A DNA stretch of 64,000 nucleotides, taken from positions 1 to 64,000 of the IMG/VR virus record IMGVR_UViG_3300047546_000864. One strand, written 5' to 3'. The DNA comes from an uncultured virus (IMG/VR IMGVR_UViG_3300047546_000864). Lineage: Duplodnaviria > Heunggongvirae > Uroviricota > Caudoviricetes > Kyanoviridae. The notes below the pieces were generated by a model. It did not search any database, was not told the origin of the DNA, and worked only from the letters and a program-made list of their open reading frames with translations. The position numbers were made by a program, and so were the translations under genes. Each line of letters opens with the position of its first letter. Position 1 is the first letter of the stretch. Shown here piece after piece: positions 1-50,625 of this stretch.

Positions 1-1080
1 GTATCTGGTATTGCTACTTATGCTAATACATCAGGTGTTTCTACTTTCTCAGGATACGCTAACGTATCTGGTATTGCTACTTATGCTAATACATCAGGTG
101 TTTCTACTTTCTCTGGATACGCTAACGTATCTGGATTCTCTACCTTCTCTGGGTACGCTAATGTATCTGGATTCTCTACGTTCTCTGGGTATTCTAATGT
201 AGCAGGTGTAGCAACTTATTCTAATGTATCTGGATTCTCTACGTTCTCTGGATACGCTAATACATCAGGTGTTTCTACTTTCTCTGGATACGCTAACGTA
301 TCTGGATTCTCTACCTTCTCTGGGTACGCTAATGTATCTGGATTCTCTACGTTCTCTGGGTATTCTAATGTAGCAGGTGTAGCAACTTATTCTAATGTAT
401 CTGGATTCTCTACGTTCTCTGGATACGCTAACGTATCTGGATTCTCTACCTTCTCTGGGTACGCTAATGTATCTGGTATTGCTACTTATGCTAATACATC
501 AGGTGTTTCTACTTTCTCAGGATACGCTAACGTATCTGGTATTGCTACTTATGCTAATACATCAGGTGTTTCTACTTTCTCTGGATACGCTAACGTATCT
601 GGATTCTCTACCTTCTCTGGGTACGCTAATACATCAGGTGTTTCTACTTATGCAGTAACGGCTGGAGTATCAACCTACTCTGGTGTTTCTGGGTTCTCTA
701 CCTTCTCTGGATACGCTAACGTATCTGGTATTGCTACTTATGCAGTAACGGCTGGAGTATCAACCTACTCTGGTGTTTCTGGGTTCTCTACTTTCTCAGG
801 ATACTCAAATACATCAGGATTCTCTACGTTCTCAGGATACGCTAATACATCAGGTGTTTCTACTTTCTCTGGATACGCTAATACATCAGGATTCTCTACC
901 TTCTCTGGATACTCAAATACATCAGGTGTTTCTACTTATGCAGTAACGGCTGGAGTATCAACCTACTCTGGTGTTTCTGGGTTCTCTACGTTCTCAGGAT
1001 ACTCAAATACATCAGGATTCTCTACGTTCTCAGGATATTCTAATGTAGCAGGCATAGCAACTTTCGCTACTAGTGCTGGT
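1..1080 (+). repeat. Coding tandem repeat array of mixed 27-nt (9-aa) and 36-nt (12-aa) units
   Basis: Units such as ANVSGFSTFSGY, ANTSGVSTFSGY, ANVSGIATY and SNVAGVATY recur near-identically at DNA level. Confidence 0.95.
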
Positions 1081-1974
1081 ATATCAACAAACCTCAAAGG
1101 TGGATCTGGTGGAACAATTGTTTACCAATCTGCTGCTGACACAACGGCATTCTTAGCAAACGGTTCTTCTGGACAAATATTACAGTCTAATGGAGGAACT
1201 AGTGCTCCTTCTTGGGTTAATGCGGCACCATCCAATGCTATTACTGGTTTAACAGTTAGAGATGAAGGTACAATCATTGGTGCTGCTAATAGTATATCTC
1301 AGTTAAACTTCGTTGGTTCTAATGTAATTGCTACTGCTACTGCTGCTACAGGTATTGCAACAATCACAATCTCAGATAACATTGTTGGTACTGGACTTTC
1401 AATTTCTGGTATTTCAACGATTGGAAACTTCCGCATCACACCAGTTGGAACAGGTGCAACAGTAGGTGGTATTGGTGTTACTTATTTTGGAGATGGTTCA
1501 AGCTTAACTGGTATTAGTGCTGGTCTAACGGTTACTGATGATACTTCAACAAACGCAACACGTTATGTTTTATTTGATGATGCTACAAGTGGGACAGTTA
1601 CATCTATTAATGTATCATCTACAAAACTCACATTCAACCCATCAACAGGAAACTTAGTTGCTGGTGGTACAGTCACAGCAAACTCCGATAAAAAACTGAA
1701 GACAGATGTTCAAACAATTGAAAATGCTCTTGAAAAAGTTCTATCTCTCAGAGGAGTTGAATTTACTCGTATAGATAATGGAGATAAACAAATTGGTGTG
1801 ATTGCACAAGAAGTTGAAGAGATTATTCCTGAGGTTGTATATCCAAAACAACCAGCACCAAATAATGAAACTAAATCAGTTGCTTATGGAAACATTGTAG
1901 GTCTCTTGATTGAAGCAATCAAAGAACAAAACAAAGAGATACAAGAACTGAAGAGAAGACTGGAGGAGGGTTGA
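1..1974 (+). CDS. Tail fibre protein, 5'-truncated; Ser/Thr/Gly/Ala repeat shaft and C-terminal peptidase S74-type intramolecular chaperone
   Basis: Frame +1 is open from base 1 to TGA at 1972-1974 (absent from the ORF track because it has no start). It translates as VSGIATYANTSGVSTFSGYANVSG... and ends NSDKKLKTDVQTIENALEKVLSLRGVEF...IGVIAQEVEEIIPEVV...VAYGNIVGLLIEAIKEQ, a typical S74 chaperone signature. Confidence 0.85.
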   Translation, partial: VSGIATYANTSGVSTFSGYANVSGIATYANTSGVSTFSGYANVSGFSTFSGYANVSGFSTFSGYSNVAGVATYSNVSGFSTFSGYANTSGVSTFSGYANVSGFSTFSGYANVSGFSTFSGYSNVAGVATYSNVSGFSTFSGYANVSGFSTFSGYANVSGIATYANTSGVSTFSGYANVSGIATYANTSGVSTFSGYANVSGFSTFSGYANTSGVSTYAVTAGVSTYSGVSGFSTFSGYANVSGIATYAVTAGVSTYSGVSGFSTFSGYSNTSGFSTFSGYANTSGVSTFSGYANTSGFSTFSGYSNTSGVSTYAVTAGVSTYSGVSGFSTFSGYSNTSGFSTFSGYSNVAGIATFATSAGISTNLKGGSGGTIVYQSAADTTAFLANGSSGQILQSNGGTSAPSWVNAAPSNAITGLTVRDEGTIIGAANSISQLNFVGSNVIATATAATGIATITISDNIVGTGLSISGISTIGNFRITPVGTGATVGGIGVTYFGDGSSLTGISAGLTVTDDTSTNATRYVLFDDATSGTVTSINVSSTKLTFNPSTGNLVAGGTVTANSDKKLKTDVQTIENALEKVLSLRGVEFTRIDNGDKQIGVIAQEVEEIIPEVVYPKQPAPNNETKSVAYGNIVGLLIEAIKEQNKEIQELKRRLEEG

Positions 1975-1975
1975 T

Positions 1976-4900
1976 ATGCCTGTTGTTGTAGGTCTAAGTT
2001 CAATCACTGGAGTTTCCACAGCAACAAGTGGTACTGATGCTGCTTACAAAGAGTATGTTGATAATAGATTAGGAGCAGCACTTCCAACCATTTACGGTAA
2101 TGAGAATGAGTTTCTCTTTACGGATGGAAGCACAGTATCGTGGGAACCAATACAGGCAAGTCAAGAATATACTGCAGCAGGGTCTTATACTTTTAACTTT
2201 CCAACACAAGCAAAGAAATTTACGATTGAAGCAACGGGTGCTGGTGGTGGTGGAGAAAGTGGAAATGCAATGTTGTCTGCATATGTTCCTGGTTCTTTGT
2301 GGTCACTAAGAACTGCGGGAACAACTACACAACTGAATGCGCTTGGATTTAGAAATAATTCATTCCTTTTAGGTGGAACTGGAGCAGGAATTTTTTATTG
2401 GACTTTAAGGACTTCTGGTACTACTTCTCCCCTTAATGGTCTTACTTATGAAAATAATACTTATTTTGTTGTTGGTAATGGTGGAAACTTAAGAACTTCA
2501 ACGGATGCAATCGTTTGGATAGCAAGGACTTCAGGTAATACTAATGTTAATTGGGTAATTTCTTATGCAAATAATCTTTACATAATTGCAGGTCTTTTTG
2601 CTGGCGGTGTAAATGAATTTTTAACTACATCAACAGATGCAATCACTTGGAGTACAAGAACTACTGGGTTTGGTACTGGTCAAATTAATGCACTTACTTT
2701 TGCAAACAACACTTATGTTGCTGGTGGTCAAACTGGAAAATTAATAACCTCAACAGACGCAATCATCTGGACTTTAAGAACCTCTGGATTTGGTAGCAAT
2801 GCTGTTAATTCTTTTGGTTATGGTGGTGGTCTTTATGTTGCTGGTGGTGCTGCTGGAGTATTAAACACTTCAACAGACGCAATCATCTGGACTTTAAGAA
2901 CTTCTGGTTCTGCGAGTCAAATTAATACTCTTATTTTTGCAAATAGTTTATATTTGTATTGTGGTGGTGCTGCTGGAAGAGTAAGCACCTCAACAGATGC
3001 AATCACTTGGGTACTGAGAACTACTAGTGGTACTACTATTTTTAATGCTCTCACCTACGCAAACAATCTTTATGTTGCTGGTGGTGGGAGTGGAATATTA
3101 ACTACCTCAACAGACACAATCACTTGGACCTTAAGAACTTCTCTTTCTAATGCTCAAGTGAATGCACTTACCTTTGGAAATGATATTTATCTTGCTGGTG
3201 GTGCTTCTGGAGTATTACACACCTCAAATTATTCTACATTAACGAATGATGAAGGATTCGGTGCATATTTCTCCACTTCTACAGACACCATATATTGGAT
3301 ACTTCGCACAACTACTCTAAGTCAAACAATTAATAGTATAGGAACCAGTAACGATTATATTGTTGCGGGAGGTAGTGATATACTTGGTAATGGTGGTAGA
3401 ATTTCAGTAACTACAGATGGAATCAATTGGTTATTGAGAACTACAGGGTTTGGTAATGCAACGATTAACAGTGTTGTTTATGGTAATGTTTATGTTGCTG
3501 GGGGTAATTTAGGAACTCCTACGGTTCAGTGGACTGCAAGAACTTCTGGTTTAGGTCTTGGTGGTATTAATACTATTAGTTATGCCTCAGACCAAACAAA
3601 TTCTTATCTTATTACTAGTAGTAATAATACGATAGCAACCTCAACAGACGCAATCACTTGGACTTTAAGAACTTTTGCATTTAATGGTTCGGCTATTCTA
3701 CTTGCAAGTTCTTACGGAAACAATACTTATCTTGCTGGTGGTAGTTTTGGAGTACTAAACACTTCAACAGATGCAATCACTTGGATTTTAAGAACTTCTG
3801 GTATAACACAAACTCTTAATGCTCTTACTTTTGTAAACAATACTTATGTTGCTGGTGCTAATATTGGAACATTAAGTACCTCAACAGATGCAATTACTTG
3901 GACTTTAAGAACCTCTGGATTTGGTAGCAATGCTGTTAATTCTTTTGGTTATGGTGGTGGTCTTTATGTTGCTGGTGGTGCTGCTGGAGTATTAAACACT
4001 TCAACAGACGCAATCATCTGGACTTTAAGAACTTCTAATAATAACAATGCTACTGTTTTTGTAATTACTTATGCAAATAATACTTATGTTGCTGGTCATG
4101 GTGGTGGGAGAATAACTGCATCAACAGATGCAATTGTTTGGACCATAAGAACTTCTGGGTTTGGTACTACTCAAATTAATGCTCTTACATTTGCAAATAA
4201 TCTCTATGTTGTAGGGGGTAATTCTGGAGTAATAAGTATTTCAACAGACACAATTATTTGGACTGCAAGAACTTCAAACACTATACAAAATCTTACTGCT
4301 CTTACTTTTGGAAACAATCTTTATGTTGCTGGTGGTGCTAATGGAGTATTAAACACTGCTACTTATTCAAGTCTTACAGACCTAGTACAAAACGGTGTTC
4401 TTCAAACATCCACAGACACAATTACTTGGTCTTTTAGAACTACAACAGATACATCAAATTCAATTAATGGTTTAGTATATACTGCAACACCTTCAAGTAA
4501 TTATGTTGCGGTTCGTAATAGTGGAGCAATTAATACTTCTACTGATGCAATTATTTGGACTGCAAGTGGTGCAATAGTATCAAATACCACACAAAACCTA
4601 AATGCAGTTGTTTATGGAAACAATCTTTATGTTGCTGCTGGTGGTTCTGGTGCAATTGTAACTTCTACGGATTCTAATACTTGGACTCTAAGAACTTCAG
4701 GTACAACATCAATTCTTCGTGGTCTTTCTTTCAGTGGTTCCACTTATGTAGCAAATGGAGACTCTGGACGTATTTTATCCTCAACAGATGCAATTACTTG
4801 GATTGCAAGAACTTCTGGTACTACCGCAAACTTAATTGGTGATGTTGGTGTCGGTAATACCTTTATAACTGCTGGTGCTTCTGGTGCTCTTTCTGCTTCT

Positions 4901-7276
4901 CCAGTTCGTCTTGGTTCTGGTGGTCCTGGTGGTGGGGGTGGAGCATCAGTGACTTGGGAACTTGATAGAACTCAAATCACAGGGTCTTCATTTAATGTAA
5001 GTGTTGGTGCTGGTGGAACTGGTGGTGGGCAAAACATATCTAATAGTTGGACTTTAAGAACTTCTGGTACTACATCAATTTATCTATCAGCAATTTATGC
5101 AAGTAATCTTTATGTTGTTGGTGGTCTTAGTGGAAGATTAATTACGTCAACAGACACAATCACTTGGACCTTAAGAACTGCTGGTTCTGGTGCTATTGCT
5201 TCTGTTCGTACTCTCCTCTATACATCATTCTATATTCTTGGTGGTAGTTTTCCTAGTCCATTAAACACTTCAACAGACGCAATCACTTGGATCTTAAGAA
5301 CTTCTGGGTTTGGTACTACTCAAATTAATGTTCTTACTTTCGCAAACAATACTTATGTTGTTGGTGGTGATAATGGAAAAATTAATACTTCAACAGACGC
5401 AATCACTTGGACTTTAAGAACTGCTGGTATTGGTTTAGATACAATTTATTCTATTACTTTTGGAAATAATACTTATGTTGCTGGATGTCTTAATGGAATA
5501 ATAATCACTTCAACAAATGCAATTGAATGGACTTTAAGAACTTCTTCATTAGTAACTAATCAAGTTAAAAGTGTTTTTTATGCAAATAATCTATATCTTG
5601 CAGGTTCAGTTCCTTCTGGTGGAGGAACTGCTAGTTTAGTAACATCAACAGATGCAATTGTTTGGACTTTAAGAACCTCTGGATTTGGTACTAATGGAAT
5701 TTATAGTAATTTCATTTACCAAAACGGTAATTACTTTGTTGCTGGTAGTGGAGGAGTATTAAACACTTCAACAAATGCAATTGTTTGGACTTTAAGAACT
5801 TCTGGATTTGGTACTAATTTCATTTATGCTCTTACTTTTGGAAACAATACTTATCTTGCTGGAGGAGAATCAGGAACTCTCACAGCACTAGACCTATCAG
5901 CACAAGCAGGTTCAAACACTACAGTATCCTGGACTGGACCTGCTGGAACTTATACAGTCACTGCGAATGGTGGTTCTGGTGCTACTGCTTATGGTGCTGG
6001 TGCTGGTGGTACAGTTCCAAATAGAAACTTTAATTACTTAAGAGCAAGTGCAGGTGCTGCTGGTGCATCTTCTCTTTATCCAGGTACAACACCAACGGCA
6101 GCAGCAACATCAACACTTTCATATCAAACAACTGGTGGTGGTTCTGGTTCTCATTCAATTGTTTATAATGTAAATGCTGGTGTTCTTGGTGGTGGTGCAG
6201 GAACGATTAATTATTATGCAAACACAGCAGCAAATACATCAATTGAAGTGAATGGAAGTTTAGGACCTAATGTTACTGGACTTTCTTATGGTGGTGGTGG
6301 AAGTGGTGGAGGTGCTGCAAGTGATAATGCACTTTTATGGACTACAAGAACTTCTAATACTGGTGGTAATAATCTTTATGCTCTCACTTTTGGAAATAAT
6401 ACTTATGTTGCTGGTGGTGTTTCTGGAACATTAAATACTTCAACAGACGCAATCACTTGGACTTTAAGAACTTCTAGTGCTACTACTCAACTTAATGTTC
6501 TTATTTACACAACTTTTTATGTTGCTGGTGGTTCTTCTGGAGTATTAAACACTTCAACAGACGCAATCACTTGGACTTTAAGAACTTCTGGATTACCTTT
6601 GGGTATTAATGCTCTTACTTTTGGAAATAATACTTATGTTGCTGGTGGTGTTTCTGGAACATTAAATACTTCAACAGACGCAATCACTTGGACTTTAAGA
6701 ACTTCTAGTGCTACTACTCAACTTAATGTTCTTATTTACACAACTTTTTATGTTGCTGGTGGTTCTTCTGGAGTATTAAACACTTCAACAGACGCAATCA
6801 CTTGGACTTTAAGAACTTCTGGGTTTGCTACTAATAATATTAATGCATTTACTTTTGGAAATAATATTTATGTTTCTGCTGGTGCTTCTGGAGTATTAAC
6901 TACTTCAACAGACGCAATCACTTGGACTTTAAGAACTTCTAGTGAGAGTTCTGGTATTAATGCCCTTATCTATCAAAATAATTTATATCTTTATGGTGGA
7001 ACATTTAGATTACATGCATCTACAGACGCAATTGTTTGGACTGCAAGAACTGTAGGGTCTAATCCTACTCCGTATGCTTTCACATACGGAAATAATACTT
7101 ATGTTGCTGCTGGTCTAACTGGAGCATTATATACTTCACCAACAATTACCGCAGGAGCAGGAGGTGCTGGTTCTAAAGGTGGTGGAGGTGGTGGAGGTGG
7201 ATATGAAGAAACCACAAACACCGCAGGTACTGGAGGAACTGGTGGTGATGGATATGTTCGTATCAGTTGGTACTAA
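1976..7276 (+). CDS. Large virion adhesin/fibre-associated protein: glycine-rich scaffold with five 7-repeat Asp-box (BNR-like) beta-propeller modules
   Basis: 35 repeats of about 40 aa (YVAGG..G.L.TSTDAITWTLRTS). Scaffold motifs QEYT..G.YTF..IEATGAGGGG and C-terminal GGDGYVRISWY. Confidence 0.75.
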   Translation: MPVVVGLSSITGVSTATSGTDAAYKEYVDNRLGAALPTIYGNENEFLFTDGSTVSWEPIQASQEYTAAGSYTFNFPTQAKKFTIEATGAGGGGESGNAMLSAYVPGSLWSLRTAGTTTQLNALGFRNNSFLLGGTGAGIFYWTLRTSGTTSPLNGLTYENNTYFVVGNGGNLRTSTDAIVWIARTSGNTNVNWVISYANNLYIIAGLFAGGVNEFLTTSTDAITWSTRTTGFGTGQINALTFANNTYVAGGQTGKLITSTDAIIWTLRTSGFGSNAVNSFGYGGGLYVAGGAAGVLNTSTDAIIWTLRTSGSASQINTLIFANSLYLYCGGAAGRVSTSTDAITWVLRTTSGTTIFNALTYANNLYVAGGGSGILTTSTDTITWTLRTSLSNAQVNALTFGNDIYLAGGASGVLHTSNYSTLTNDEGFGAYFSTSTDTIYWILRTTTLSQTINSIGTSNDYIVAGGSDILGNGGRISVTTDGINWLLRTTGFGNATINSVVYGNVYVAGGNLGTPTVQWTARTSGLGLGGINTISYASDQTNSYLITSSNNTIATSTDAITWTLRTFAFNGSAILLASSYGNNTYLAGGSFGVLNTSTDAITWILRTSGITQTLNALTFVNNTYVAGANIGTLSTSTDAITWTLRTSGFGSNAVNSFGYGGGLYVAGGAAGVLNTSTDAIIWTLRTSNNNNATVFVITYANNTYVAGHGGGRITASTDAIVWTIRTSGFGTTQINALTFANNLYVVGGNSGVISISTDTIIWTARTSNTIQNLTALTFGNNLYVAGGANGVLNTATYSSLTDLVQNGVLQTSTDTITWSFRTTTDTSNSINGLVYTATPSSNYVAVRNSGAINTSTDAIIWTASGAIVSNTTQNLNAVVYGNNLYVAAGGSGAIVTSTDSNTWTLRTSGTTSILRGLSFSGSTYVANGDSGRILSSTDAITWIARTSGTTANLIGDVGVGNTFITAGASGALSASPVRLGSGGPGGGGGASVTWELDRTQITGSSFNVSVGAGGTGGGQNISNSWTLRTSGTTSIYLSAIYASNLYVVGGLSGRLITSTDTITWTLRTAGSGAIASVRTLLYTSFYILGGSFPSPLNTSTDAITWILRTSGFGTTQINVLTFANNTYVVGGDNGKINTSTDAITWTLRTAGIGLDTIYSITFGNNTYVAGCLNGIIITSTNAIEWTLRTSSLVTNQVKSVFYANNLYLAGSVPSGGGTASLVTSTDAIVWTLRTSGFGTNGIYSNFIYQNGNYFVAGSGGVLNTSTNAIVWTLRTSGFGTNFIYALTFGNNTYLAGGESGTLTALDLSAQAGSNTTVSWTGPAGTYTVTANGGSGATAYGAGAGGTVPNRNFNYLRASAGAAGASSLYPGTTPTAAATSTLSYQTTGGGSGSHSIVYNVNAGVLGGGAGTINYYANTAANTSIEVNGSLGPNVTGLSYGGGGSGGGAASDNALLWTTRTSNTGGNNLYALTFGNNTYVAGGVSGTLNTSTDAITWTLRTSSATTQLNVLIYTTFYVAGGSSGVLNTSTDAITWTLRTSGLPLGINALTFGNNTYVAGGVSGTLNTSTDAITWTLRTSSATTQLNVLIYTTFYVAGGSSGVLNTSTDAITWTLRTSGFATNNINAFTFGNNIYVSAGASGVLTTSTDAITWTLRTSSESSGINALIYQNNLYLYGGTFRLHASTDAIVWTARTVGSNPTPYAFTYGNNTYVAAGLTGALYTSPTITAGAGGAGSKGGGGGGGGYEETTNTAGTGGTGGDGYVRISWY

Positions 7277-10200
7277 AGGAGGATAACTAAATGACTACCG
7301 CAGGTTCTAATTTTATTTCTGGTATTACTACAACAGTCTTTGCTTCAACTGATGTAGTCAATAAGGATTATGTAGATGCTAATGCACAACCCTTACCATC
7401 ACAAACTGGTAATGCTGGTAAGTTTTTACTTACAACTGATGGAACAAGTCTTTCTTGGGATTATGTTTCTAACTATCAGGAATTTACATCAACTGGAGCA
7501 CAGACTTTTACAGTTCCAAGTTATACAAACCTTTTGTTTATTGAAGCAGTTGGTGCTGGCGGTGGAGGAAGTGCGGGGCAGACAACAGCACAGGCAGGAG
7601 TTACTTGGACAATTAGAACTGCTATAAACATATCTAGTTCTGGTGGTGGTAATGTTACTTTTGGAAATTCTCTGTTTATTTCTGGAGTAAATTCTAACAC
7701 AATAGTCGTATCAACAGATGCAATTTCTTGGATTTTGAGAACTGCTGTATTCAATACTAGTCCATCTTCTGCAGAGTATCTTAATGGTAATTATTTTGTT
7801 GGTGGAAATGTATTTTTAACTACATCGACAGATACAATCACTTGGATATTGAGAACTACTGCAGGTATGGTAACTGGAATTACCTTTGGAAATAGTATTT
7901 ACCTCGCCACTGGTACTGGTCTACCTTTAGAATCATCAACCGATACCATAAATTGGACTCTGAGAACTGGTGGAGGTATTGGAGGTTCGTCTTCTGTTGG
8001 TTTTGGAAATGGTATTTTTCTTGCTGGTGGTTTTTCTGGTATCTTAAACACTTCAACAGACGCAATCACTTGGACCTTAAGAACTTCTGGGTTTAATACT
8101 ACTATTAATGTTTTTACTTATACAACTTTTTATGTTGCTGGTGGTAATAGTGGAGTCTTAAATACCTCAACAGACGCAATCACTTGGACTCTGAGAACTT
8201 CTGGTTTTGGTGCTAATAATATTCGTACTCTTACCTTTGGAAACAACATTTATGTTGCTGGTGGTGATTCGGGAAGACTCAATACTTCAACAGACGCAAT
8301 CACTTGGACCTTAAGAACTTTTGTTAGTACGACATTATTAATAAGTTCTACTTATGGAAACAATACATTCCTTTTTTCAGGTTCAGGTGGTCCAACTTCA
8401 TTACACACCTCATACTCCCAAGCATCAGGAGCAGGAGGAGGTGCAGGTTCTTATACTTCCTGGTATATTCCAAAAGCAATTGTATCATCAAACCTCACAA
8501 TCAATCCTGGTGTTGGTGGAGCAGGAGCAACCACAGACGCAGCAACAGGTTCAGCAGGAGCAGGAACCACAGTATCCTGGACTGGACCTGGAGGAACTTA
8601 TACAATCACAGCATCTGGTGGTTCTGGAACAGCAGCAGGAGCAGCACAACTCACAAGTCAATCAAGTTCTTTTTATACCACTGCAGGACTTTCTGGGGCA
8701 AATCAATCTCCAGGAATAGGTATCACAGCAACAGCACAAACTAATCAATTCCAACCAACAGGTGGTGGAAGTGGTGCTGGTTCTACTTCAAGTGCTGGTG
8801 GTTCTGGTGGAGTAATCAACGTATATGGAATCACAACATCAGCATCTGGTGGAGACTCTACAGGAACAAATGGAACTAATGCTATTGTAATCTCTGGACT
8901 TCCTTATGGTTCTGGTGGAGGTGGTGGAGGTGCAAGTGTTTCTATTGCAGCAACTGGTGGAAATGGTGCTCGTGGTGGTGGTGGAGGTGGTGGTGCTTCT
9001 ATCGGTTCTACTTTTGGTTCTGGTGGAAATGGTGGTGATGGTTACGTGAAGATTACCTGGTGGTAAATAAATACCCTTATGGAAGATAGAAGACAATGGC
9101 AACATTAGACAGCAATAAGGTTACTAGTGTAAGTGTAGTATCTGGTACGACTGATGCTGTAAATCGTCAATATCTTGATGATAATGCTCTTCCAAGTTTA
9201 ACTGGAAATGCTGGAAGATTTTTAGCAGTTTATCCTGGTGCTCAGTATTGGGTGTTGAGGACTTCTGGTTCTGTGTCAGGTTTAGGTGCTAATGTTTACA
9301 CAACTTTTTATGTTGCTGGTGGTGTTTCTGGAAGATTGAATACCTCAACAGACGCAGTTACCTGGACTTCAAGAACTTCTGGATTTGGTCTCTCTAATAT
9401 CAATGCTCTTACTTATTCAACTTTTTATGTTGCTGGTGGTTTTTCTGGTATCTTAAACACTTCAACAGACGCAATCACTTGGACCTTAAGAACTTCTGGT
9501 TTTGCTACTACTATCATTTATGCTCTTACTTTTGCTAATAATCTTTATATTGCTGCTGGTGATAGTGGAGTATTAAACACTTCAACAGATGCTATTACTT
9601 GGACCTTAAGAACTTCTAACTTTGGTGGTTCTCAATATATTCAAAGTGTTACTTTTGCAAATAATACTTATGTTGCTGGTGGTGTTGCTGGAATTATAAA
9701 GACTTCAATAAATGGAATTGTATGGGTCGCAAGAACTTCTGGTTTTGGTGGTGATGCTATTATCGTTCTCAATTTTCTTAATAACGCTTATGTTGCTGGT
9801 GGTGGTTCTGGAAAATTAAGTACCTCAACCGATGCAATCACTTGGACCTTAAGAACTACTGGTACTGGTCAAAATATAAGAAATCTTACTTATGGAAATA
9901 ATACTTACGTTGCTGGTGGTTCTAATGGAACATTAATTACTTCAACAGATACTATTATTTGGTCCATAAGAACTTCTTTAGTTACTAATTCTATTAATGG
10001 AATAGTTTTTGCAAACAATGCTTATACTGCATTTGTTGGTGGTGGTGAAATAATAACTTCCCAAGCAACTCAAAAAATCTGGGAACCCATAAATGCTACA
10101 ACAACCACACCACAAGACCCAGTATCATACAAAGGTTCTCAAGAATTCACAAGTTCTGGAACATTCTTTATTCCTCCAACAGCAACCCAGTTTTACATTG

Positions 10201-12495
10201 AAGCAATCGGTGGTGGTGGAGGCGGAGCATCAGGAAGAGTTACGGGAACATTAGGTTCTGGTGGTGGTGGTGGTTCTGGTGCTTATAATTCTTGGTTAAT
10301 TCGTCGTGGAGAACTTGGAAGTGCTTCTACGATGACCGTGACTGTTGGTGCTGGTGGTCGTGGTGGAAACAATCGTGGAATGAGTACGAGTACTGATGGA
10401 ATTGTATGGGAGACTGTTCCTGGTGGATCTGGTCTTACTTATTCAGTTCAAAAACTATTGTATAATAATCCATACTATGTTGCACTTTTTACGGCATCTG
10501 GAATTACAGTATCTACTGATAATGGAGTTACTTGGAGAATTAGAACAACTGGTTATTCTTCAATTACAACTTTTTCATCGTTAACTTATGGTAATAGTCC
10601 TACTGATACTTATGTTGCAGGTGATAATGCTGGTAGACTGATAACTTCAACGGACACAATTATTTGGACTTTAAGAACTGCTGGTACTACTGTATCTCAT
10701 AATGCTCTTGTTTTTGCAAATAATACTTACGTTGCTGGTTGCCCTGCTGGAAGATTACTTACTTCAACAGACGCAATCACCTGGACTTTAAGAACTTCAA
10801 ATACTGCACAAACTTTTTATGCTCTCACTTTTGCAAATAATACTTATGTTGTTGCTGGTGATTCTGGAGTATTAAACACTTCAACAAACGCAATTCAATG
10901 GACTTTAAGAACTTCTGGAATAATTAATACTATATTAGGATTAATATTTGGAAATAATCTTTATGTTGCTGGTAGTACTCTTGGAGTCATAGTAACCTCA
11001 ACAGATACAATTGTTTGGACTTTAAGAACTTCAGGAACCACCACACAATTAAATGCCCTCTCATACACAAACAATCTCTACATAACAGCAGGTGCTTCTG
11101 GAGTTCTTGCATCATCTACAGACACAATCACTTGGACGCAAAGAACCTCACTCTTTAAGGCACAAAACATCAACGCACTCACATACGGAACAGTCTTTGT
11201 TGCTGGTGGTGTTAGTTCTGGTGGTGGAAGTTCTGGTAGTGGATCAAGTGTTACTTGGATTGGAAATACTCCAACAGGTACTGCGACTTATCAATTAACT
11301 GCTGCTACTGGTGGTGGAGCAAGTGATACAGCAACCACAGCAGGAACCCAAGGTTCATCTTTAGTTGCAACAACAAATAATCTTTATACTACTGCTGGTG
11401 GTGCTGGTGGTGCTGGATTATCAGCATTAGCAACTTCAAACTCTTCTACACAAGCAAGTGCATTCCAAGTTTCTGGTGGTGGAGGAGGAGCATATAATAC
11501 CAATACAGGAGGTAATTCAGTTTCTTATTATTATGGAAATACTGCTACAACGAGTGGTGGAAGTAATACTGGTGGTAATGGTGCTGATGGTATTCCTGGA
11601 AGTTATACTGGGTCTTATGGTTCTGGTGGAGGTGGTGGAGGTGCTTTGAGCACTGGAATTAATAGTTGGTATGCAAGAACTGCTGGTTTTGGTGGTAATG
11701 CTATTAATAATATCACTTTTGGAAACAATACTTATGTTGCTGCTGGTGCTAATGGTACATTAAATACTTCAACAGACGCAATCACTTGGACCTTAAGAAC
11801 TTCTGGGAATTCTACTGCGAGTATTAATGCTATTATTTTTGCAAACAATACTTATATCACTGCAGATAATGGTGGAACATTAAACACTTCAACAGACGCA
11901 ATCACTTGGGAGTTAAGAACTTCTGGGTATGGTGGTACTTGGTATACTCTTACTTTTGGTAATGGTATTCATATTGTTGGTGGTATTAGTGGAAGGTTAA
12001 GTACATCAACAGACACAATTACTTGGACCTTAAGAACTTCTGGTTTTGGTGGTAATGCTATTAATAATATCACTTTTGGAAACAATACTTATGTTGCTGG
12101 TGGTGCTTCTGGAGTATTAAACACCTCAACAGATACAATCACCTGGACCTTAAGAACTGCTAGTTTTGGTTCTAATGGTATTACTGCGATCACCTACGCA
12201 AACAATCTCTATGTTGCTGGTGGTGGTACTTTCCCCATGACTGTAAATATCTCAACTGATGCAATCACTTGGCAATTAAGAACTGTTGGATTTTCTGGAA
12301 ATACTTTAAGGGGACTTACATATGGGAATAATATCTATGTTTTATGTGGTGATTCTTCTCAATTGAGAACTTCAACTGATACTATTGTGTGGATTGCTAG
12401 AACTACTGGGGTTTCTTTTGTTTTAAATAATATTATTTTTGGTAATAATCTTTTTGTATCTGGTGGTACTAGTGGTGGACTTATAACAGCATCAG
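2300..12495 (+). repeat. Dispersed coding repeat, about 63 blades of ~115-125 nt, with conserved core TCAACAGACGCAATCACTTGGAC(T/C)TTAAGAACT
   Basis: The core recurs dozens of times in frame, encodes STDAITWTLRT and is followed by a hypervariable segment. Confidence 0.95.
7291..9066 (+). CDS. Paralogous glycine-rich protein with one 7-repeat Asp-box propeller module
   Basis: Same N-terminus type (TDVVNKDYVD..LPSQTGNAGKFL), QEFT..IEAVGAGGGG, 7 repeats, C-terminal GGDGYVKITWW. Strong RBS AAGGAGG upstream. Confidence 0.75.
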   Translation: MTTAGSNFISGITTTVFASTDVVNKDYVDANAQPLPSQTGNAGKFLLTTDGTSLSWDYVSNYQEFTSTGAQTFTVPSYTNLLFIEAVGAGGGGSAGQTTAQAGVTWTIRTAINISSSGGGNVTFGNSLFISGVNSNTIVVSTDAISWILRTAVFNTSPSSAEYLNGNYFVGGNVFLTTSTDTITWILRTTAGMVTGITFGNSIYLATGTGLPLESSTDTINWTLRTGGGIGGSSSVGFGNGIFLAGGFSGILNTSTDAITWTLRTSGFNTTINVFTYTTFYVAGGNSGVLNTSTDAITWTLRTSGFGANNIRTLTFGNNIYVAGGDSGRLNTSTDAITWTLRTFVSTTLLISSTYGNNTFLFSGSGGPTSLHTSYSQASGAGGGAGSYTSWYIPKAIVSSNLTINPGVGGAGATTDAATGSAGAGTTVSWTGPGGTYTITASGGSGTAAGAAQLTSQSSSFYTTAGLSGANQSPGIGITATAQTNQFQPTGGGSGAGSTSSAGGSGGVINVYGITTSASGGDSTGTNGTNAIVISGLPYGSGGGGGGASVSIAATGGNGARGGGGGGGASIGSTFGSGGNGGDGYVKITWW

Positions 12496-12638
12496 ACACC
12501 ACAGCATCAGCAGCAGGACACGGAGGAAATGGAACTCGTGGTGGTGGTGGAGGTGGAGGTGGATACTCCATAGAACAAAACAAATTTGGTGTTGGTGGTG
12601 ATGGTGGAAATGGATACGTAAAAATTACCTGGTGGTAA
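9096..12638 (+). CDS. Paralogous glycine-rich protein with three 7-repeat Asp-box propeller modules
   Basis: Same scaffold, 21 repeats, C-terminal GGNGYVKITWW. Late-promoter-like ATAAATA near 9067-9073. Confidence 0.75.
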   Translation: MATLDSNKVTSVSVVSGTTDAVNRQYLDDNALPSLTGNAGRFLAVYPGAQYWVLRTSGSVSGLGANVYTTFYVAGGVSGRLNTSTDAVTWTSRTSGFGLSNINALTYSTFYVAGGFSGILNTSTDAITWTLRTSGFATTIIYALTFANNLYIAAGDSGVLNTSTDAITWTLRTSNFGGSQYIQSVTFANNTYVAGGVAGIIKTSINGIVWVARTSGFGGDAIIVLNFLNNAYVAGGGSGKLSTSTDAITWTLRTTGTGQNIRNLTYGNNTYVAGGSNGTLITSTDTIIWSIRTSLVTNSINGIVFANNAYTAFVGGGEIITSQATQKIWEPINATTTTPQDPVSYKGSQEFTSSGTFFIPPTATQFYIEAIGGGGGGASGRVTGTLGSGGGGGSGAYNSWLIRRGELGSASTMTVTVGAGGRGGNNRGMSTSTDGIVWETVPGGSGLTYSVQKLLYNNPYYVALFTASGITVSTDNGVTWRIRTTGYSSITTFSSLTYGNSPTDTYVAGDNAGRLITSTDTIIWTLRTAGTTVSHNALVFANNTYVAGCPAGRLLTSTDAITWTLRTSNTAQTFYALTFANNTYVVAGDSGVLNTSTNAIQWTLRTSGIINTILGLIFGNNLYVAGSTLGVIVTSTDTIVWTLRTSGTTTQLNALSYTNNLYITAGASGVLASSTDTITWTQRTSLFKAQNINALTYGTVFVAGGVSSGGGSSGSGSSVTWIGNTPTGTATYQLTAATGGGASDTATTAGTQGSSLVATTNNLYTTAGGAGGAGLSALATSNSSTQASAFQVSGGGGGAYNTNTGGNSVSYYYGNTATTSGGSNTGGNGADGIPGSYTGSYGSGGGGGGALSTGINSWYARTAGFGGNAINNITFGNNTYVAAGANGTLNTSTDAITWTLRTSGNSTASINAIIFANNTYITADNGGTLNTSTDAITWELRTSGYGGTWYTLTFGNGIHIVGGISGRLSTSTDTITWTLRTSGFGGNAINNITFGNNTYVAGGASGVLNTSTDTITWTLRTASFGSNGITAITYANNLYVAGGGTFPMTVNISTDAITWQLRTVGFSGNTLRGLTYGNNIYVLCGDSSQLRTSTDTIVWIARTTGVSFVLNNIIFGNNLFVSGGTSGGLITASDTTASAAGHGGNGTRGGGGGGGGYSIEQNKFGVGGDGGNGYVKITWW

Positions 12639-12683
12639 AACTTGCCTAGATATGATAGAATGAATTCAATATGACTTTATTGT

Positions 12684-13406
12684 ATGCCCCTGAATTATAC
12701 AAATCAAACGACAAGTACAAGTCTTAAAGGAAAAACCATTGCTTTCTGTCTTCCAGGATTGATGTATTCTGGAACTTTTATGACTCAGTTCATAAGATTA
12801 CTGTTTGACCTGAATCAACAAGGAATTAATTTTTATATCTCCCAACAATACAGTTCAATGGTGAATCACGCACGAACTGATTGTTTGCAGGCAGATAATT
12901 ATGCAGGAACGATGCTCACTCCTTTTAGAGGACAGGTTCCTTATGATTATATTATGTGGATTGATAGTGATATTATCTTCAAGACAGAAGACCTGATTGA
13001 ACTTCTTAAAATGAATAAGGATATTGCTGCTGGTTGGTATGTTCAATCAAATGGTGGGATTCTTTCCAATCAATCTACTGTTGTAGAAAGAATGAATCAA
13101 CAAGAACTTTATGAGAAAGGTTCTAATAAGTATGAGACTGTTGAAGATATGTCTCGCAGAACAGAACCTTTTAAAGTAGATTATTGTGGTTTTGGTTGGA
13201 TGTTGATTAAGAAAGGTGTCTATGAAAAAATTCCTTATCCTTGGTTTGTTCCGAGAGTGATTCAACTCAAGAAACCAGATGGGACTATTCTTGAAGATGT
13301 CTGCTCTGAAGACATCTCTATGTGTGAAGACTTCCGCAAGTATGGGTTTGATATTTGGGTTCATCCAAAAGTTCGTGTCGGTCACCAGAAAATGATTACT
13401 ATTTAA
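12684..13406 (+). CDS. GT-A fold (GT2-like) glycosyltransferase, cyanophage type
   Basis: YDYIMWIDSDI (DxD motif), VDYCGFGWMLIKKGVYE..YPWF, SEDISMC, VGHQK. Confidence 0.8.
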   Translation: MPLNYTNQTTSTSLKGKTIAFCLPGLMYSGTFMTQFIRLLFDLNQQGINFYISQQYSSMVNHARTDCLQADNYAGTMLTPFRGQVPYDYIMWIDSDIIFKTEDLIELLKMNKDIAAGWYVQSNGGILSNQSTVVERMNQQELYEKGSNKYETVEDMSRRTEPFKVDYCGFGWMLIKKGVYEKIPYPWFVPRVIQLKKPDGTILEDVCSEDISMCEDFRKYGFDIWVHPKVRVGHQKMITI

Positions 13407-13411
13407 ATCTT

Positions 13412-14107
13412 ATGCTAAATTATTCTAATTCACAGCAACAAGAGACAAAACCACATTTTAATGTGGTGATTACAACTCCAGGTAATTCAATGTGTGCGGA
13501 CTATGTAAAGTGTCTGCTCGCAACGATTCATACACTTCAAGCAAATAATATTTCTTGGTTATACCAGAACGAGTATGCTTCTATTATTACAAATGCAAGA
13601 GAAGCAACGATTACAGGTTCAAGAAATCTAGAAGTCTTTAATTCTGCACCAGGTAAAGGTCAATACACTTATGATAAAATCTTCTGTATTGATAGTGATA
13701 TTGTCTGGAATCCAGAGCAGTTTCTAAGACTTTATGCAAGTGATAAGTCAGTTATTTCTGCTGTGTACTTTGAGGCACAGGGAAATGATGCAATGATACA
13801 CAAACAAAAAAATGATTTTAAACCAACCACAAGAGAAGAACTTCAACTTCTTCAACAACTAGGAGAACCGATTGAAGTTTATGGTGTTGGTATGGGATTT
13901 ATGTGCATCAAGTCTGGTGTCTTTGAATCACTCAAAAGACCCTGGTTTGGTCTTGGGAAGGTCATTCAAGAGGTAGATGGAGTAACTTATGAACTTCCAC
14001 TTGGAGAAGACTTATACTTCTGTGAGAGGGTCGCAGAGCAGGGTCATAAGGTTTATGTAGACCCCAACATTATTGTTGGACACATTAAGAGTAATATTGT
14101 ATGTTGA
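13412..14107 (+). CDS. GT-A fold glycosyltransferase, paralogue of the preceding gene
   Basis: YDKIFCIDSDI, GMGFMCIKSGVFE..RPWF, GEDLYFC, VGHIK. Start placed at ATG 13412 (MLNYSN). Confidence 0.8.
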   Translation: MLNYSNSQQQETKPHFNVVITTPGNSMCADYVKCLLATIHTLQANNISWLYQNEYASIITNAREATITGSRNLEVFNSAPGKGQYTYDKIFCIDSDIVWNPEQFLRLYASDKSVISAVYFEAQGNDAMIHKQKNDFKPTTREELQLLQQLGEPIEVYGVGMGFMCIKSGVFESLKRPWFGLGKVIQEVDGVTYELPLGEDLYFCERVAEQGHKVYVDPNIIVGHIKSNIVC

Positions 14108-15534
14108 ATTATACTAACGAAAAGAAAAATCCAAAAACTATCGCAGTTTTCTATCATCTTTATATTCCAGACACCAACAATATGTGGATTTGGTGGGTGG
14201 ATGAACAGATGAGTCTGTTGAAGTCCACTGGTCTTGCTGATAAGGCAACCATTAATATGTGTATTACCCTACCTCTTGGTCTTTATAATTCCAAAACAGG
14301 ACATTCATATGACCAAATGGTGACTGGATATATCAAAGACAGATTCCCATTTGTAAACATCATTGATATGAGAGGTGTGGGGGAACAACCAAATCTTTAT
14401 GAAGGTCAAACACTTGCAAAGATTTATGAGCATTGTCTTCAAGAGGATGGTTATGTCTTCTACTTCCATAATAAAGGAATGAGTTCTTATTCAACCCATA
14501 TTCCTGGTGCGATCAAGGACTGGAGACACTATATGCAGTATTATAATATTGAAAAGTGGGAAGACTGTATTGCAAAACTAGACGAAGGTTATGATTGTTG
14601 TGGTGTTGACTGGGTAGAAAGACACGACATCAAACTTGATTTTGTTGTTCAACATTATGCAGGAAACTTCTGGTGGGCACGAAATGATTACATCCGCAAA
14701 CTGAAGCATCCACTCAAAATTGAAGAGTATATGGATGTAGAAGCAATGATGAGAGAGTTACAGAACTATCGTTATTGTTTTGAATTATGGATGGCTACAG
14801 GACTTCCAAAGCAACATTGTTTCCATTATCGTCGTCATCATCAATACGATAATCAAGGTCTTGAAAGATACTTCACTTATTATCCTCCAGAAATGTATCG
14901 TGATGATGTTGAAAAAGATGAGACGAAATATAATAGGAATAAGTTAGATGTATTAATGGAAGTTGGAAGTAAAAACTTATTCAACTGGAGAGACCATAGA
15001 CAGTTTGCAGATTGGTTAGTTCGTAGAAAGCAACCAGAAACAATTGTTGATTTGGGTGTGGATTATGGATACTCAACATTCTGTTTTGCACTTCCAGAAA
15101 TCGGTCAAGTTTATGGTATTGATAGTTTTGAAGGAGATATTTGTGCTGGAGAAAGAGATACTTATGAATATGTGAGAGATAAAGTTAAAGAACTTGAATT
15201 GAATAATGTTACAATTATCAAAGGGTTCTTTGACGATGTTGTTAAAACTTGGAATAAACCAATTGATATTTTGCATATTGATGGTCTTCATACTTATGAA
15301 GCAGTCAGAAATGATTTTGAAAAGTGGATTCCATTTGTAAAAGAAAATGGTATAATATTAATGCATGATACTATGGTTGATGACCCTAAGTTTGGTGTGA
15401 GTAGATTCTTTAAAGAAATTAATTTACCTAAAACAAACTTTGGGCATTGTAATGGATTGGGTGTAGTTGCTGGAGATATAAATCTCATTAATGAAATTAA
15501 AAAGAATTTTGGAGAGTTTATCCGTGAAATTTAA
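14101..15534 (+). CDS. Putative glycosyltransferase-like domain fused to a class I SAM methyltransferase (Methyltransf_24-like)
   Basis: N-terminal YFHNKG/HYAGNFWWA motif. C-terminal IVDLGVDYGYS, YGIDSF, IDILHIDGLHTYE, ILMHD. Confidence 0.7.
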   Translation: MLNYTNEKKNPKTIAVFYHLYIPDTNNMWIWWVDEQMSLLKSTGLADKATINMCITLPLGLYNSKTGHSYDQMVTGYIKDRFPFVNIIDMRGVGEQPNLYEGQTLAKIYEHCLQEDGYVFYFHNKGMSSYSTHIPGAIKDWRHYMQYYNIEKWEDCIAKLDEGYDCCGVDWVERHDIKLDFVVQHYAGNFWWARNDYIRKLKHPLKIEEYMDVEAMMRELQNYRYCFELWMATGLPKQHCFHYRRHHQYDNQGLERYFTYYPPEMYRDDVEKDETKYNRNKLDVLMEVGSKNLFNWRDHRQFADWLVRRKQPETIVDLGVDYGYSTFCFALPEIGQVYGIDSFEGDICAGERDTYEYVRDKVKELELNNVTIIKGFFDDVVKTWNKPIDILHIDGLHTYEAVRNDFEKWIPFVKENGIILMHDTMVDDPKFGVSRFFKEINLPKTNFGHCNGLGVVAGDINLINEIKKNFGEFIREI

Positions 15535-16366
15535 TTTAGTAAGAATTGTTCCTGATAATGGATTTGATGTTCACGCACAAGTCTTTCATGAGATTGAAGC
15601 AGCAATGTTTTTTTCTCTACAACGATTGGGACATGATGTAACAAATAGCACAAATCAATTTGCATCAGACCGAAGAAATATCGTGTTTGGAATGCATCAC
15701 TGTCCTGTTGATGTGGTAAGACATGATATTCCAAAAGGAACAATTGTTTATTCTCTGGAACAAATGAAAGACCAACCAGAGTGTATGCGTTGGTGTCGTA
15801 AGTATCGTGGTCTTGAAGTATGGGATTATTCTCTTCGTAATGTAGAGGTTCTTCAAAAGGCAGGTGTGGAGAATATTAAGTACTGTAAGATTGGTTATGT
15901 TCCAGAGATTTCATACTTTGAAAGAAATAAACCACAAGACCGTGATATTGATATTCTGTTTTATGGATGCCCTTCACCACGAAGAGTTCATATTATGGAG
16001 CAGTTTTCAAACAATCCAAAACTGAACTTTGTTCATATTCAATCAACTTATGGTGATGAACGAGATGAATATATCAAGAGAGCAAAGTTAGTCATCAACC
16101 TTCATAATCACGATAATCAAATCTTTGAAATGGTTCGTGTATCTCATTTGATTCAAAACAAAGTTCCAGTTCTTGCAGAAAGAAACCCTGATACAGACTT
16201 CCCTGATTATATGGAAGACACGGTATTCACTTCAACTTACAATCGTTTTGTGGATACTGCTTACAGACTTCTCAAGAAACCAGAAGAACTTGACGCACAA
16301 GCAGAAAAAGGTCTTGAAATCTTTAAGAAGTCTCCAATGGAAAACTTCTTAAAGGAGGTTTTATGA
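15524..16366 (+). CDS. Putative glycosyltransferase (GT-B-like)
   Basis: DIDILFYG..SPRR, YGDERD..IKRAKLVINLH, FEMVRVS. GTG start with GGAG RBS. Lies within the glycosylation cluster. Confidence 0.6.
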   Translation: MKFNLVRIVPDNGFDVHAQVFHEIEAAMFFSLQRLGHDVTNSTNQFASDRRNIVFGMHHCPVDVVRHDIPKGTIVYSLEQMKDQPECMRWCRKYRGLEVWDYSLRNVEVLQKAGVENIKYCKIGYVPEISYFERNKPQDRDIDILFYGCPSPRRVHIMEQFSNNPKLNFVHIQSTYGDERDEYIKRAKLVINLHNHDNQIFEMVRVSHLIQNKVPVLAERNPDTDFPDYMEDTVFTSTYNRFVDTAYRLLKKPEELDAQAEKGLEIFKKSPMENFLKEVL

Positions 16367-32425: not shown

Positions 32426-32860
32426 TTAAAATAATTCATTCTCAGTAATTACTTTAAATTCATATCCACGATCAGCACACCATTCTCTTGCAGCTTCCCA
32501 TTTTGATTGGTTTTTAGCATACTCATAGACTTCACTAATGTATCTTTTAGTTTGTCTTTGTGGTTTGGGTGGGGGGACAGTTTGCTTCTGAGGTTTGATT
32601 TCAATTAAATATTTTTTTATACTTCCATTTCCTTCTTGGACTTTAATGTAGAAATCTGGAAAATAACGATGAGGTTTTCCATCAATGGGGGATTTATACC
32701 AGACATACATCTCTTCACTACCCCATTCTAATATTTTTTGATTCGTATCACAATAAACCATAAATTTTCTTTCCCACAAAGATCTGTATACAATGTTTGT
32801 TGGATCTCCTTTATATTTTTGTGGGTAAGATGGTTTATATTTTCCTTTGTAAGAAGCCAT
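32426..32860 (-). CDS. gp4: Head completion nuclease gp4
   Basis: YKGDPTNIVYRSLWE, WGSEE, HRYFPDF, IEIKP, N.SKWEAA, FKVITE. Confidence 0.92.
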   Translation of the reverse strand: MASYKGKYKPSYPQKYKGDPTNIVYRSLWERKFMVYCDTNQKILEWGSEEMYVWYKSPIDGKPHRYFPDFYIKVQEGNGSIKKYLIEIKPQKQTVPPPKPQRQTKRYISEVYEYAKNQSKWEAAREWCADRGYEFKVITENELF

Positions 32861-50589: not shown

Positions 50590-50625
50590 TTTTAAAAATA
50601 AATACTTCAAATAAAGCAGCTACAA

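Follow-up and report, generated by a model that had tools for sequence, protein, structure and literature searches.

Seven-bladed propellers set into head sockets, and very probably into one another, in three candidate adhesins of a probable T4-like cyanophage

The stretch of DNA analysed here (the window, 64,000 nucleotides (nt), positions 1 to 64,000 of IMG/VR record IMGVR_UViG_3300047546_000864) is the first 64 kb of a 71.9-kb contig of an uncultured virus classified in the Kyanoviridae. Three neighbouring open reading frames (ORFs) on its + strand, here called genes A, B and C, encode proteins of 1766, 591 and 1180 amino acids which carry many copies of a repeat of about 40 residues. The locus raises the question of how these repeats are built into proteins and whether their likeness at the nucleotide level marks a system for diversifying host-recognition surfaces, as a preliminary description of the sequence had proposed. 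We consider it probable that the three proteins are paralogous structural proteins, of fibre-tip or adhesin type, which bear seven-bladed propellers both in sockets of a common head and within one another, and which have been shaped by ordinary recombination.

Strict W-x-x-R-T anchors were counted 34 times in A, 7 times in B and 20 times in C, giving 61. Two degenerate anchors which keep the Asp-box and the tryptophan and lack R-T (W861 of A, 'WTASG', and W438 of C, 'WETVP') bring the total to 63 (35, 7 and 21), or nine units of seven, and thereby bear out the earlier count of five, one and three modules with seven blades each. Six runs isolated by scaffold sequence contained exactly seven anchors, and the other 21 anchors formed a single unbroken run in A. 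The blade consensus was SGFG-xx-IN-LTF-GNN-TYVAGG-xSG-L-TSTDAITWTLRT. Along the blade the segment following R-T, which frequently begins with the recurring SGFG, was the most variable part (2.2–3.3 bits of entropy against 0–0.8 bits at S-T-D, W and R-T), in agreement with the preliminary description, and the three loop peptides it had cited as examples are all present in the proteins. Serine was found six residues before the anchor tryptophan in 55 of 63 blades and aspartate four residues before it in 50 of 63, which corresponds to one Asp-box hairpin per blade. Most of these hairpins are one residue below the canonical length (S-T-D-A-I-T-W versus S-x-D-x-G-x-T-W), and a canonical hairpin (T-D-N-G-V-T-W) is present at anchor W480 of C.

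An AlphaFold2 model of B, built from an alignment of 20 orthologues of about 600 residues, had a mean predicted local distance difference test score (pLDDT) of 80 and contained a closed ring of seven four-stranded blades. Residues 99–378 of the model matched seven-bladed structures with Z of 26–30 and a root-mean-square deviation of 2.4–2.9 Å over about 270 aligned residues, and the assignment of the modules as seven-bladed propellers was upheld by these matches. Foldseek returned chiefly seven-bladed WD40 rings, together with eight-bladed designer propellers and Ycf48 (5oj3); the search with the whole model was dominated by the propeller, and these structural matches concern the ring and not the head. 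Split-blade ('velcro') closure is usual in propellers, and in the B model the ring opens with a tryptophan strand without a preceding Asp-box and the last repeat contributes strands 1–3 only. The W-x-x-R-T motif, which had been taken for the start of the blade, is strand 4 of the blade in the secondary structure of the model. Among the 20 B orthologues the entropy of the scaffold was 1.05–1.15 bits and that of the propeller 1.88 bits, with 0–0.7 bits at the Asp-box and 2.2–3.0 bits in the loops; the loops between strands 4 and 1 and between strands 2 and 3 were the most variable. Propeller topology would place both sets of loops on one face of the ring, opposite the Asp-boxes, as expected from the suggestion that the variable segments share one face. 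The profile searches speak against an Asp-box assignment: no BNR, PSII_BNR or Sortilin-Vps10 match was obtained in a Pfam search of A, B and C, DUF6242 scored 31.2 bits in A (cut-off 29) and was under the cut-off in B and C, and Kelch was found below threshold only.

The unbroken run of 21 anchors in A has an internal grammar of its own. Anchors without an Asp-box were numbers 1, 2 and 11, and units of only 33 and 34 residues, holding strands 1 and 2, stood directly before anchors 2 and 11. Units of 57 and 56 residues followed anchors 8 and 17, each made up of closing strands 1–3, a linker of 12 residues and then a strand 3, an Asp-box and a strand 4. A stack parse resolved the run into three rings of seven anchors: an outer ring (W109, 441, 485, 818, 861, 903 and 942), a first inner ring (W142–W384) and a second inner ring (W519–W762). 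The closest database homologue (P0125, 51% identity) showed the same nesting pattern as A, and the orthologue of A at locus L016 showed the same triple ring inside one further ring. Short and long units were present in 14 of 14 long runs of relatives, and 8 of the 14 could be parsed as nested sevens by unit length alone. From the sequence grammar, the pattern in one orthologue and the split-chain model given below, the 21-blade run is very probably one outer ring with two inner rings nested in it. The nested inserts would lie on the same ring face as the variable loops.

The alternative is that the run consists of three seven-bladed propellers in tandem, so that the nine modules would be independent beads. 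It would explain why the run is three times seven, and tandem propellers are common (1nr0, which is among the structural matches of the B model, contains two seven-bladed ones). Such an arrangement predicts anchors without an Asp-box at numbers 1, 8 and 15 and not at 1, 2 and 11 as seen; cuts at the two long, linker-bearing units yield 8, 9 and 4 anchors, and the short and long units are found exactly at the places which nesting predicts. When the three outer pieces were modelled as separate chains they formed one assembly, with an interaction prediction score from aligned errors (ipSAE) of 0.83 against 0.00 for the best of three controls. As a calibration, 116 of 157 solved complexes and 2 of 215 mismatched pairs score this high, counts which apply approximately because own alignments were used. 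Contact agreement in the split-chain runs was at least 89% and partner pLDDT at least 77, the half-blades paired as predicted and the last blade contacted the first, and the nested outer ring is accordingly modelled as closed. Three points weigh against nesting. Six of the 14 long runs in relatives failed the strict length-only parse; the direct AlphaFold2 model of residues 95–985 of A, made from an alignment of six rows, had a mean pLDDT of 37 and was unusable, which leaves nesting without a direct structural model and counts in favour of the tandem arrangement; and the split-chain assembly could have arisen simply because any propeller pieces look much like solved propellers. On balance we give the tandem arrangement a small chance only and retain nested rings. 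The components are all of known kinds (Asp-box propellers, a Gly_rich_2 head and modular phage fibres). In the literature searched, which did not extend to subscription journals, neither these proteins nor propellers set within propellers nor the socketed, self-nested arrangement were found described.

The part of the proteins outside the propellers resembles a glycine-rich head. The Pfam domain Gly_rich_2 (PF21722, cut-off 24.3 bits) was matched by C with 34.9 bits, and an Atlas model of residues 375–591 of B matched Gly_rich_2 clusters, nearly all from tailed phages, with template modelling (TM) scores of 0.83–0.84 over 200–207 residues, predicted models being compared on both sides. Two results do not favour this assignment: the score of B, 20.2 bits, was under the cut-off and A gave no Gly_rich_2 match at E ≤ 0.01. 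Residues 373–591 of B gave 0 matches to PDB sequences at E ≤ 10 and 0 PHROG families. In all three proteins the domain is split by the inserted propellers, and aligning the scaffold pieces of B to A and C mapped four insertion points, or sockets. Socket 0, filled in C, belongs to the N-terminal region; socket 1 follows IEA-GAGGGG-SG and is filled in A and B; socket 2 follows V-VGAGG-GG and is filled in A and C; and socket 3, ahead of the final glycine run, is also filled in A and C. Seven of the nine propellers sit in these head sockets, and the proposal that modules are plugged into a shared glycine-rich scaffold at different points is correct for them; the other two are most probably held inside another propeller, in blades 1 and 3 of the first propeller of A.

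Among 8000 candidates scored, 311 homologues of B and 412 of A were found at E ≤ 0.001, all unnamed or 'hypothetical', and a cluster look-up of six NCBI-sourced homologues returned 'hypothetical protein' only. A tblastn search of cultured phages with B gave only two weak records. The three-gene cluster was present in 33 IMG/VR loci. A ring census was made on 46 distinct complete ORFs, leaving out loci of the same genome, a second assembly of it (L009), 9 truncated ORFs and 26 duplicates. Anchor runs were multiples of seven in 85 of 96 cases (71 of 7, 6 of 14, 3 of 21, 3 of 28, 1 of 35 and 1 of 42); the other runs had lengths of 5, 6, 8, 20, 40 and 48, and 36 of the 46 ORFs were clean. The number of rings per ORF ranged from 1 to 10, with 2, 4 or 5 in A orthologues, 1 or 2 in B-type and 2 to 10 in C-type genes. 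Three C-type genes (L027, 11642-21625; L020, 11834-21796; L040, 2894-11851) encode about 3000–3300 residues with 62–72 anchors, around ten rings and signatures of deep nesting. Relatives therefore keep the cluster and differ by whole modules, which supports the recombination proposal in this respect. Two-ring orthologues were aligned to A by BLASTP to learn whether their first ring corresponds to the outer pieces of A; the alignments were long, gapped and ambiguous, all rings being 35–48% alike. A crude parse of distant database homologues, which resolved wholly into sevens in only 79 of 221 proteins, goes against the general rule; its failures are regarded as mostly missed, putatively degenerate anchors. 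Once relatives are included, counting by seven blades is more regular than had been claimed, and the architecture, with four sockets and self-nesting, is richer.

The preliminary description had also suggested exchange of sequence among blades, and four exact tracts of 60–206 nt (Table 1) support this and mark it as recent. At most tract borders identity falls sharply to about 35–57%, the exceptions being the upstream side of the 138-nt tract and the downstream side of the 60-nt tract, where identity was still 0.66–0.80. Three of the four tracts end just past AGAACTTCT, at the start of the variable loop, and their ends match what conversion tracts ending inside shared cores would look like. 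For the 206-nt repeat, a tandem duplication of two blades would break the count of seven, and replacement therefore fits better than insertion. Blade identity was 0.451 within rings and 0.446 between rings and genes, so that the blades behave as one pool. When rings were compared for register, the two inner rings of A stood out at shift 0 (0.59 against 0.49–0.52) and the other 35 ring pairs had no preferred shift; whole-ring copying found no support in this test beyond the A inner pair. Best blade partners were scattered over rings and genes, with a few consensus-like blades acting as hubs. With their sharp borders, the four exact tracts show recent gene conversion between blades, modules and genes. 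The pattern fits an ordinary process, ectopic gene conversion in a T4-like phage proficient in recombination, which homogenises blades as much as it diversifies them.

Each blade had been said to contain a near-invariant DNA core. The 33-nt core was found exactly in 11 of 63 blades and with up to three mismatches in 26 of 63, where 0.00 were expected from 100 shuffles. It lies far beyond chance, but only some of the blades have it. Within the core, codons were far more uniform than the codon usage of the phage: TCA made up 82% in the core and 24% in the background, ACA 80% and 37%, GAC 56% and 20%, ATC 58% and 18%, and TTA 77% and 26%, and GAC and ATC tended to co-occur (Fisher p 0.015). The core is therefore not explained by amino-acid constraint and codon bias, an explanation which had been named as one that would overturn the original idea. 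Codon identity at shared residues exceeded the codon-bias expectation in 33 of 38 scored blade columns, however, with 0.70 observed against 0.44–0.48 expected in the variable segment and 0.87 against 0.38 at YVAGG. The excess covers the whole blade, the variable part as much as the core, which does not agree with a core specially protected as a crossover element; codon sharing of this extent is the mark of whole blades that share descent or evolve in concert.

These results bear on the possibility that the locus actively diversifies by recombination, with the cores offering crossover sites at which loop cassettes are frequently swapped, as in lamprey variable lymphocyte receptors (VLRs) or antigenic variation. 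The uniform core codons would suit it, as would the exact tracts, since three of them stop immediately past the core and the 138-nt one covers precisely one blade, core to core. Homologous recombination is potent in T4-like phages, and gp32, gp59 and a helicase are encoded in the window. Against this, codon sharing is equally high in the variable part where residues coincide, and the tracts homogenise, yielding duplicate blades. The search for dedicated components was extended to the second assembly, L009, a near-complete contig of 211 kb (CheckV completeness 100%) which matches the window with 100% identity along 19,692 nt. All 28 propeller matches to B in this genome lay within 196,633-207,280, that is, in the three genes themselves, so that the genome has no donor store of cassettes. 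RVT_1 was not matched in either of two records, one of them 100% complete by CheckV (3 of 14 control genomes matched), and neither Resolvase nor Phage_integrase was matched in the one record searched (controls, 12 of 14 and 14 of 14). The absence of a visible reverse transcriptase or invertase, first remarked for the window, thus extends to the near-complete genome. Contig pieces of public sequencing runs X1 and X3 showed 0 differences to the window where they could be placed, which together with the identity of L009 is a weak argument against active shuffling, as these may be source samples. Runs X1, X3, X4 and X5 were compared over 1500-13100 as short-read contigs which break at repeats, so that blade order is unreadable in them. 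The joints listed for these contigs are taken as cross-matches, their sides being only 20–22 nt long in glycine-rich DNA. Among 40 of 353 single-letter differences, 18 were non-synonymous and 22 synonymous (5:2 in the strand 4–strand 1 loop and 2:4 in the core), too few to interpret. Programmed assembly of the VLR kind finds no support in the 211-kb genome, and we regard an active shuffling system as very improbable. What stands of the recombination proposal is its evolutionary part, a history of gene conversion and of gain and loss of rings, and striking conservation of repeats at the nucleotide level can arise from ordinary gene conversion without dedicated diversity machinery.

For the function of the proteins, virion location and ligand binding are suggested by context. 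A conserved anchor with variable exposed loops is typical of receptor-binding proteins. A fibre gene with an S74 chaperone domain lies directly upstream of A on the same strand. Homologous propellers are fused to Mtd_N, Sipho_tail/Dit and Laminin_G_3, phage proteins of the Gly_rich_2 family also occur with Mtd_N, and among the BFVD neighbours are fibre proteins with an S74 chaperone, BNR-repeat proteins and a baseplate wedge protein of a cyanophage. Two observations weigh against a place on the virion: the PHROG tail matches of B, themselves part of the supporting context, were weak (E 1.5e-06 and 2.8e-04), and the genes just downstream of C are glycosyl- and methyltransferase-like and not structural. 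The latter would favour proteins that are secreted or displayed on the cell surface during infection, for example as decoys or superinfection-exclusion factors, as would the scarcity of homologues in cultured phages, where only the two weak records were found and no close homologue. The position directly behind a tail-fibre gene on the same strand, the recurrence of the head and the propeller type in fibre, Dit and Mtd-type proteins and the conservation of the N-terminal adaptor among paralogues and orthologues argue the other way, and we hold a non-virion role to be doubtful.

Phage fibres often bear depolymerases, and the propellers might instead be enzymes, glycoside hydrolases or sialidase-like depolymerases which cut host polysaccharide. 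BFVD neighbours named xyloglucan hydrolase and galactose oxidase point in this direction, and several families of glycoside hydrolases typically have Asp-box propellers (Quistgaard and Thirup 2009, PMC2716378). No glycoside hydrolase Pfam match was obtained in A, B or C, however, and the nine different rings have no common residues outside the framework, which argues against a single catalytic site. The putative active face is also where blades, and likewise orthologues, vary most, and we judge an enzymatic role improbable.

With adhesin-type proteins as the preferred reading, the following scheme can be proposed. Each protein would consist of a short conserved N-terminal adaptor and one Gly_rich_2 head, four surface loops of which (the sockets) would carry complete, self-closing seven-bladed propellers of Asp-box type; the propeller in socket 1 of A would bear two more in the strand 2–strand 3 loops of its blades 1 and 3. 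Framework residues (GNN-YVAGG and S-T-D-x-I-x-W-x-x-R-T) are constant and the loops of one ring face are variable, and this face may bind host surface ligands, most likely glycans. Nine different propellers could give multivalent, multi-specific attachment. The blades would form a shared pool kept similar by ectopic gene conversion, which would also move loop cassettes between blades, propellers and genes, and whole seven-blade units would be gained and lost at the sockets.

A further step can be offered only tentatively. The proteins may represent a recursively extensible adhesin, in which a self-closing ring of seven blades can splice into a head loop or into any ring, T4-type recombination keeps the blades exchangeable, and host range evolves by reshuffling of blades and rings. 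If this were so, nature would offer here a protein which grows recursively, and receptor diversity would be reached by a distinct route without a dedicated diversification enzyme. Receptor-binding proteins set the host range of phages and are largely unknown for uncultured freshwater and marine T4-like phages. A countable building rule, by which only complete seven-blade rings are added in a few fixed loops or in one another, would explain proteins of 600 to more than 3300 residues in relatives. The locus thus offers a natural example of domain self-insertion for the study of protein evolution and a candidate family of multivalent adhesins for phage biology.

Table 1. Genes, propellers, head segment and exact tracts at the locus (window positions; aa, amino acids)
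Feature	Position	Strand	Remarks
Upstream tail-fibre gene P0004, 3' part	1..1974	+	long Ser/Gly/Thr-rich repeat array, then C-terminal Peptidase_S74 intramolecular chaperone domain; Pfam PF13884 E 5.3e-16; 25+ PHROG tail-fibre families
Gene A, P0001, 1766 aa	1976..7276	+	N-terminal adaptor, Gly_rich_2-type head, sockets 1, 2, 3 filled; 35 blades = 5 propellers
A outer propeller piece 1, aa ~107-136	2294..2383	+	closing strand 4 and strands 1-2 of blade 1; anchor W109 without Asp-box, 33-aa unit; split-chain model
A inner propeller 1, aa ~139-417, anchors W142-W384	2390..3226	+	predicted in strand 2-strand 3 loop of outer blade 1; W142 without Asp-box, 57-aa end unit
A outer propeller piece 2, aa ~430-513	3263..3514	+	strands 3-4 of blade 1, blade 2, strands 1-2 of blade 3
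A inner propeller 2, aa ~516-795, anchors W519-W762	3521..4360	+	predicted in strand 2-strand 3 loop of outer blade 3; W519 without Asp-box after 34-aa unit, 56-aa end unit
A outer propeller piece 3, aa ~808-975	4397..4900	+	strands 3-4 of blade 3, blades 4-6, strands 1-3 of blade 7
A propeller in socket 2, aa ~1023-1300	5042..5875	+	7 anchors
A propeller in socket 3, aa ~1453-1722	6332..7141	+	7 anchors; contains 206-nt exact internal repeat
Gene B, P0002, 591 aa	7291..9066	+	minimal form: head and one propeller in socket 1
B propeller, aa ~104-372	7600..8406	+	modelled closed 7-bladed ring
B C-terminal half of glycine-rich head, aa 373-591	8407..9063	+	end GGDGYVKITWW; Gly_rich_2 20.2 bits; TM 0.84 over 200 residues; pLDDT mostly 85-95
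Gene C, P0003, 1180 aa	9096..12638	+	head with sockets 0, 2, 3 filled; 21 blades = 3 propellers
C propeller in socket 0, aa ~50-322	9243..10061	+	N-terminal region, between B residues 51 and 63 (B 1-51 aligned to C 1-48; B 63-103 aligned to C 349-387)
C propeller in socket 2, aa ~431-710	10386..11225	+
C propeller in socket 3, aa ~856-1132	11661..12491	+
206-nt exact direct repeat	6386-6591 = 6617-6822 (span 6386..6822)	+	two blades copied within A socket 3; flanks 35-42% identical
138-nt exact tract	2768-2905 = 3899-4036	+	one blade, core to core, common to inner rings 1 and 2
70-nt exact tract	8021-8090 = 9430-9499	+	gene B and gene C
60-nt exact tract	11683-11742 = 12040-12099	+	blades 1 and 4 of C socket 3

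The source phage is a probable freshwater T4-like cyanophage (myovirus) with a genome of about 211 kb. T4-type genes in the window include those for gp32, the gp59 loader, baseplate and tail-tube proteins, thyX, phoH and a collar-domain fibre of 1895 residues. All 15 cultured-phage records with a nucleotide match to the window were Synechococcus myoviruses, the best at 82% identity over thyX, and megablast of the three-gene region against cultured phages gave no match. Sequencing runs containing sequence of the window were labelled freshwater, river, estuary or marine.

The upstream fibre protein is largely made of dozens of near-identical short units of the type SG(V/F/I)(S/A)T(F/Y)SGYANV (window positions 1-1400), ahead of a globular end and the S74 domain, and in L009 this gene reaches 1,934 nt further upstream. 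Directly downstream of gene C, a run of glycan-related genes (12684-20675) comprises two phrog_1574 paralogues with weak glycosyltransferase likeness, two Methyltransf_24 genes, glycosyltransferases of families 17 and 2 and a UDP-galactopyranose mutase. Candidate targets of their products are the fibre proteins described here, the upstream fibre with its many Ser and Thr residues and the surface of the host. An NAD-dependent sugar epimerase/dehydratase of the GDP-mannose 4,6-dehydratase family is encoded at 61294-62319, far from the rest of the glycan genes. A second large fibre (1895 residues, phrog_529, Collar domain) followed by a tail protein of 572 residues is found at 44902-52344, and the window therefore holds at least three distinct fibre-type systems. 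Amid the baseplate and fibre genes lie a protein with a TnsA-like endonuclease N-terminal domain (32426-32860, - strand) and an ORF with a NUMOD3 motif (44340-44879, + strand), which may be selfish elements of the homing-endonuclease type. A Mom-family DNA modification protein (29079-29669, E 1.1e-24) is encoded directly after gp32. Between 52000 and 54000 the G+C content rises to 0.477, against about 0.33–0.41 elsewhere, over a DEAD/ResIII helicase gene (52485-53720), and this stretch also contains an antisense ORF of 318 residues (52815-53771).

Compared with known systems, the rings of A, B and C are closest in build to Asp-box (BNR) propellers of the Ycf48/HCF136 type, which likewise have seven four-stranded blades with an S-x-D...W hairpin between strands 3 and 4 of each, and a cultured-phage tblastn match bears the annotation photosystem II assembly factor. 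They differ from this type in the mostly shorter hairpin, in giving no BNR or PSII_BNR match and in being present as multiple copies inserted in another domain or in one another. Highly repetitive propellers newly amplified from single blades have been described, with the Asp-box lineage and viruses among the carriers (Pereira and Lupas 2022, PMC9218822), and the blades studied here share with them a high mutual similarity. Median blade identity per ring is 0.33–0.55, under the 60% mark given in that paper. Similarity between rings and genes equals that within a ring and exact tracts are patchy, which fits continuing exchange rather than a single recent amplification. The text of that paper contains neither the word 'nested' nor the word 'insert'.

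Lamprey VLRs and diversity-generating retroelements (DGRs) also have repeat units with constant frameworks and variable ligand-facing residues, and some homologues of the present proteins carry the Mtd_N domain of the DGR target protein. They part from the present locus in that here no donor store and no reverse transcriptase or recombinase match was found in the near-complete genome, and no evidence of variation within a population was obtained from L009 or from runs X1 and X3.

Gly_rich_2 is a common domain in tailed phages, where it is combined with Mtd_N, DUF5907 and Ig domains, and the head of A, B and C falls in with these proteins; no mention of PF21722 was found in the literature searched. 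Typical members have 170–560 residues and an uninterrupted domain, whereas in A, B and C up to three loops each hold a propeller of about 270 residues. In gp38-type adhesins of T-even phages, glycine-rich motifs frame hypervariable loops at the tip of the fibre. Similarity in sequence was not found, residues 373–591 of B having 0 PDB sequence matches at E ≤ 10. These adhesins and the proteins described here have in common a conserved glycine-rich framework which carries variable elements for host recognition; in gp38 these elements are short loops, and here they would be whole propellers.

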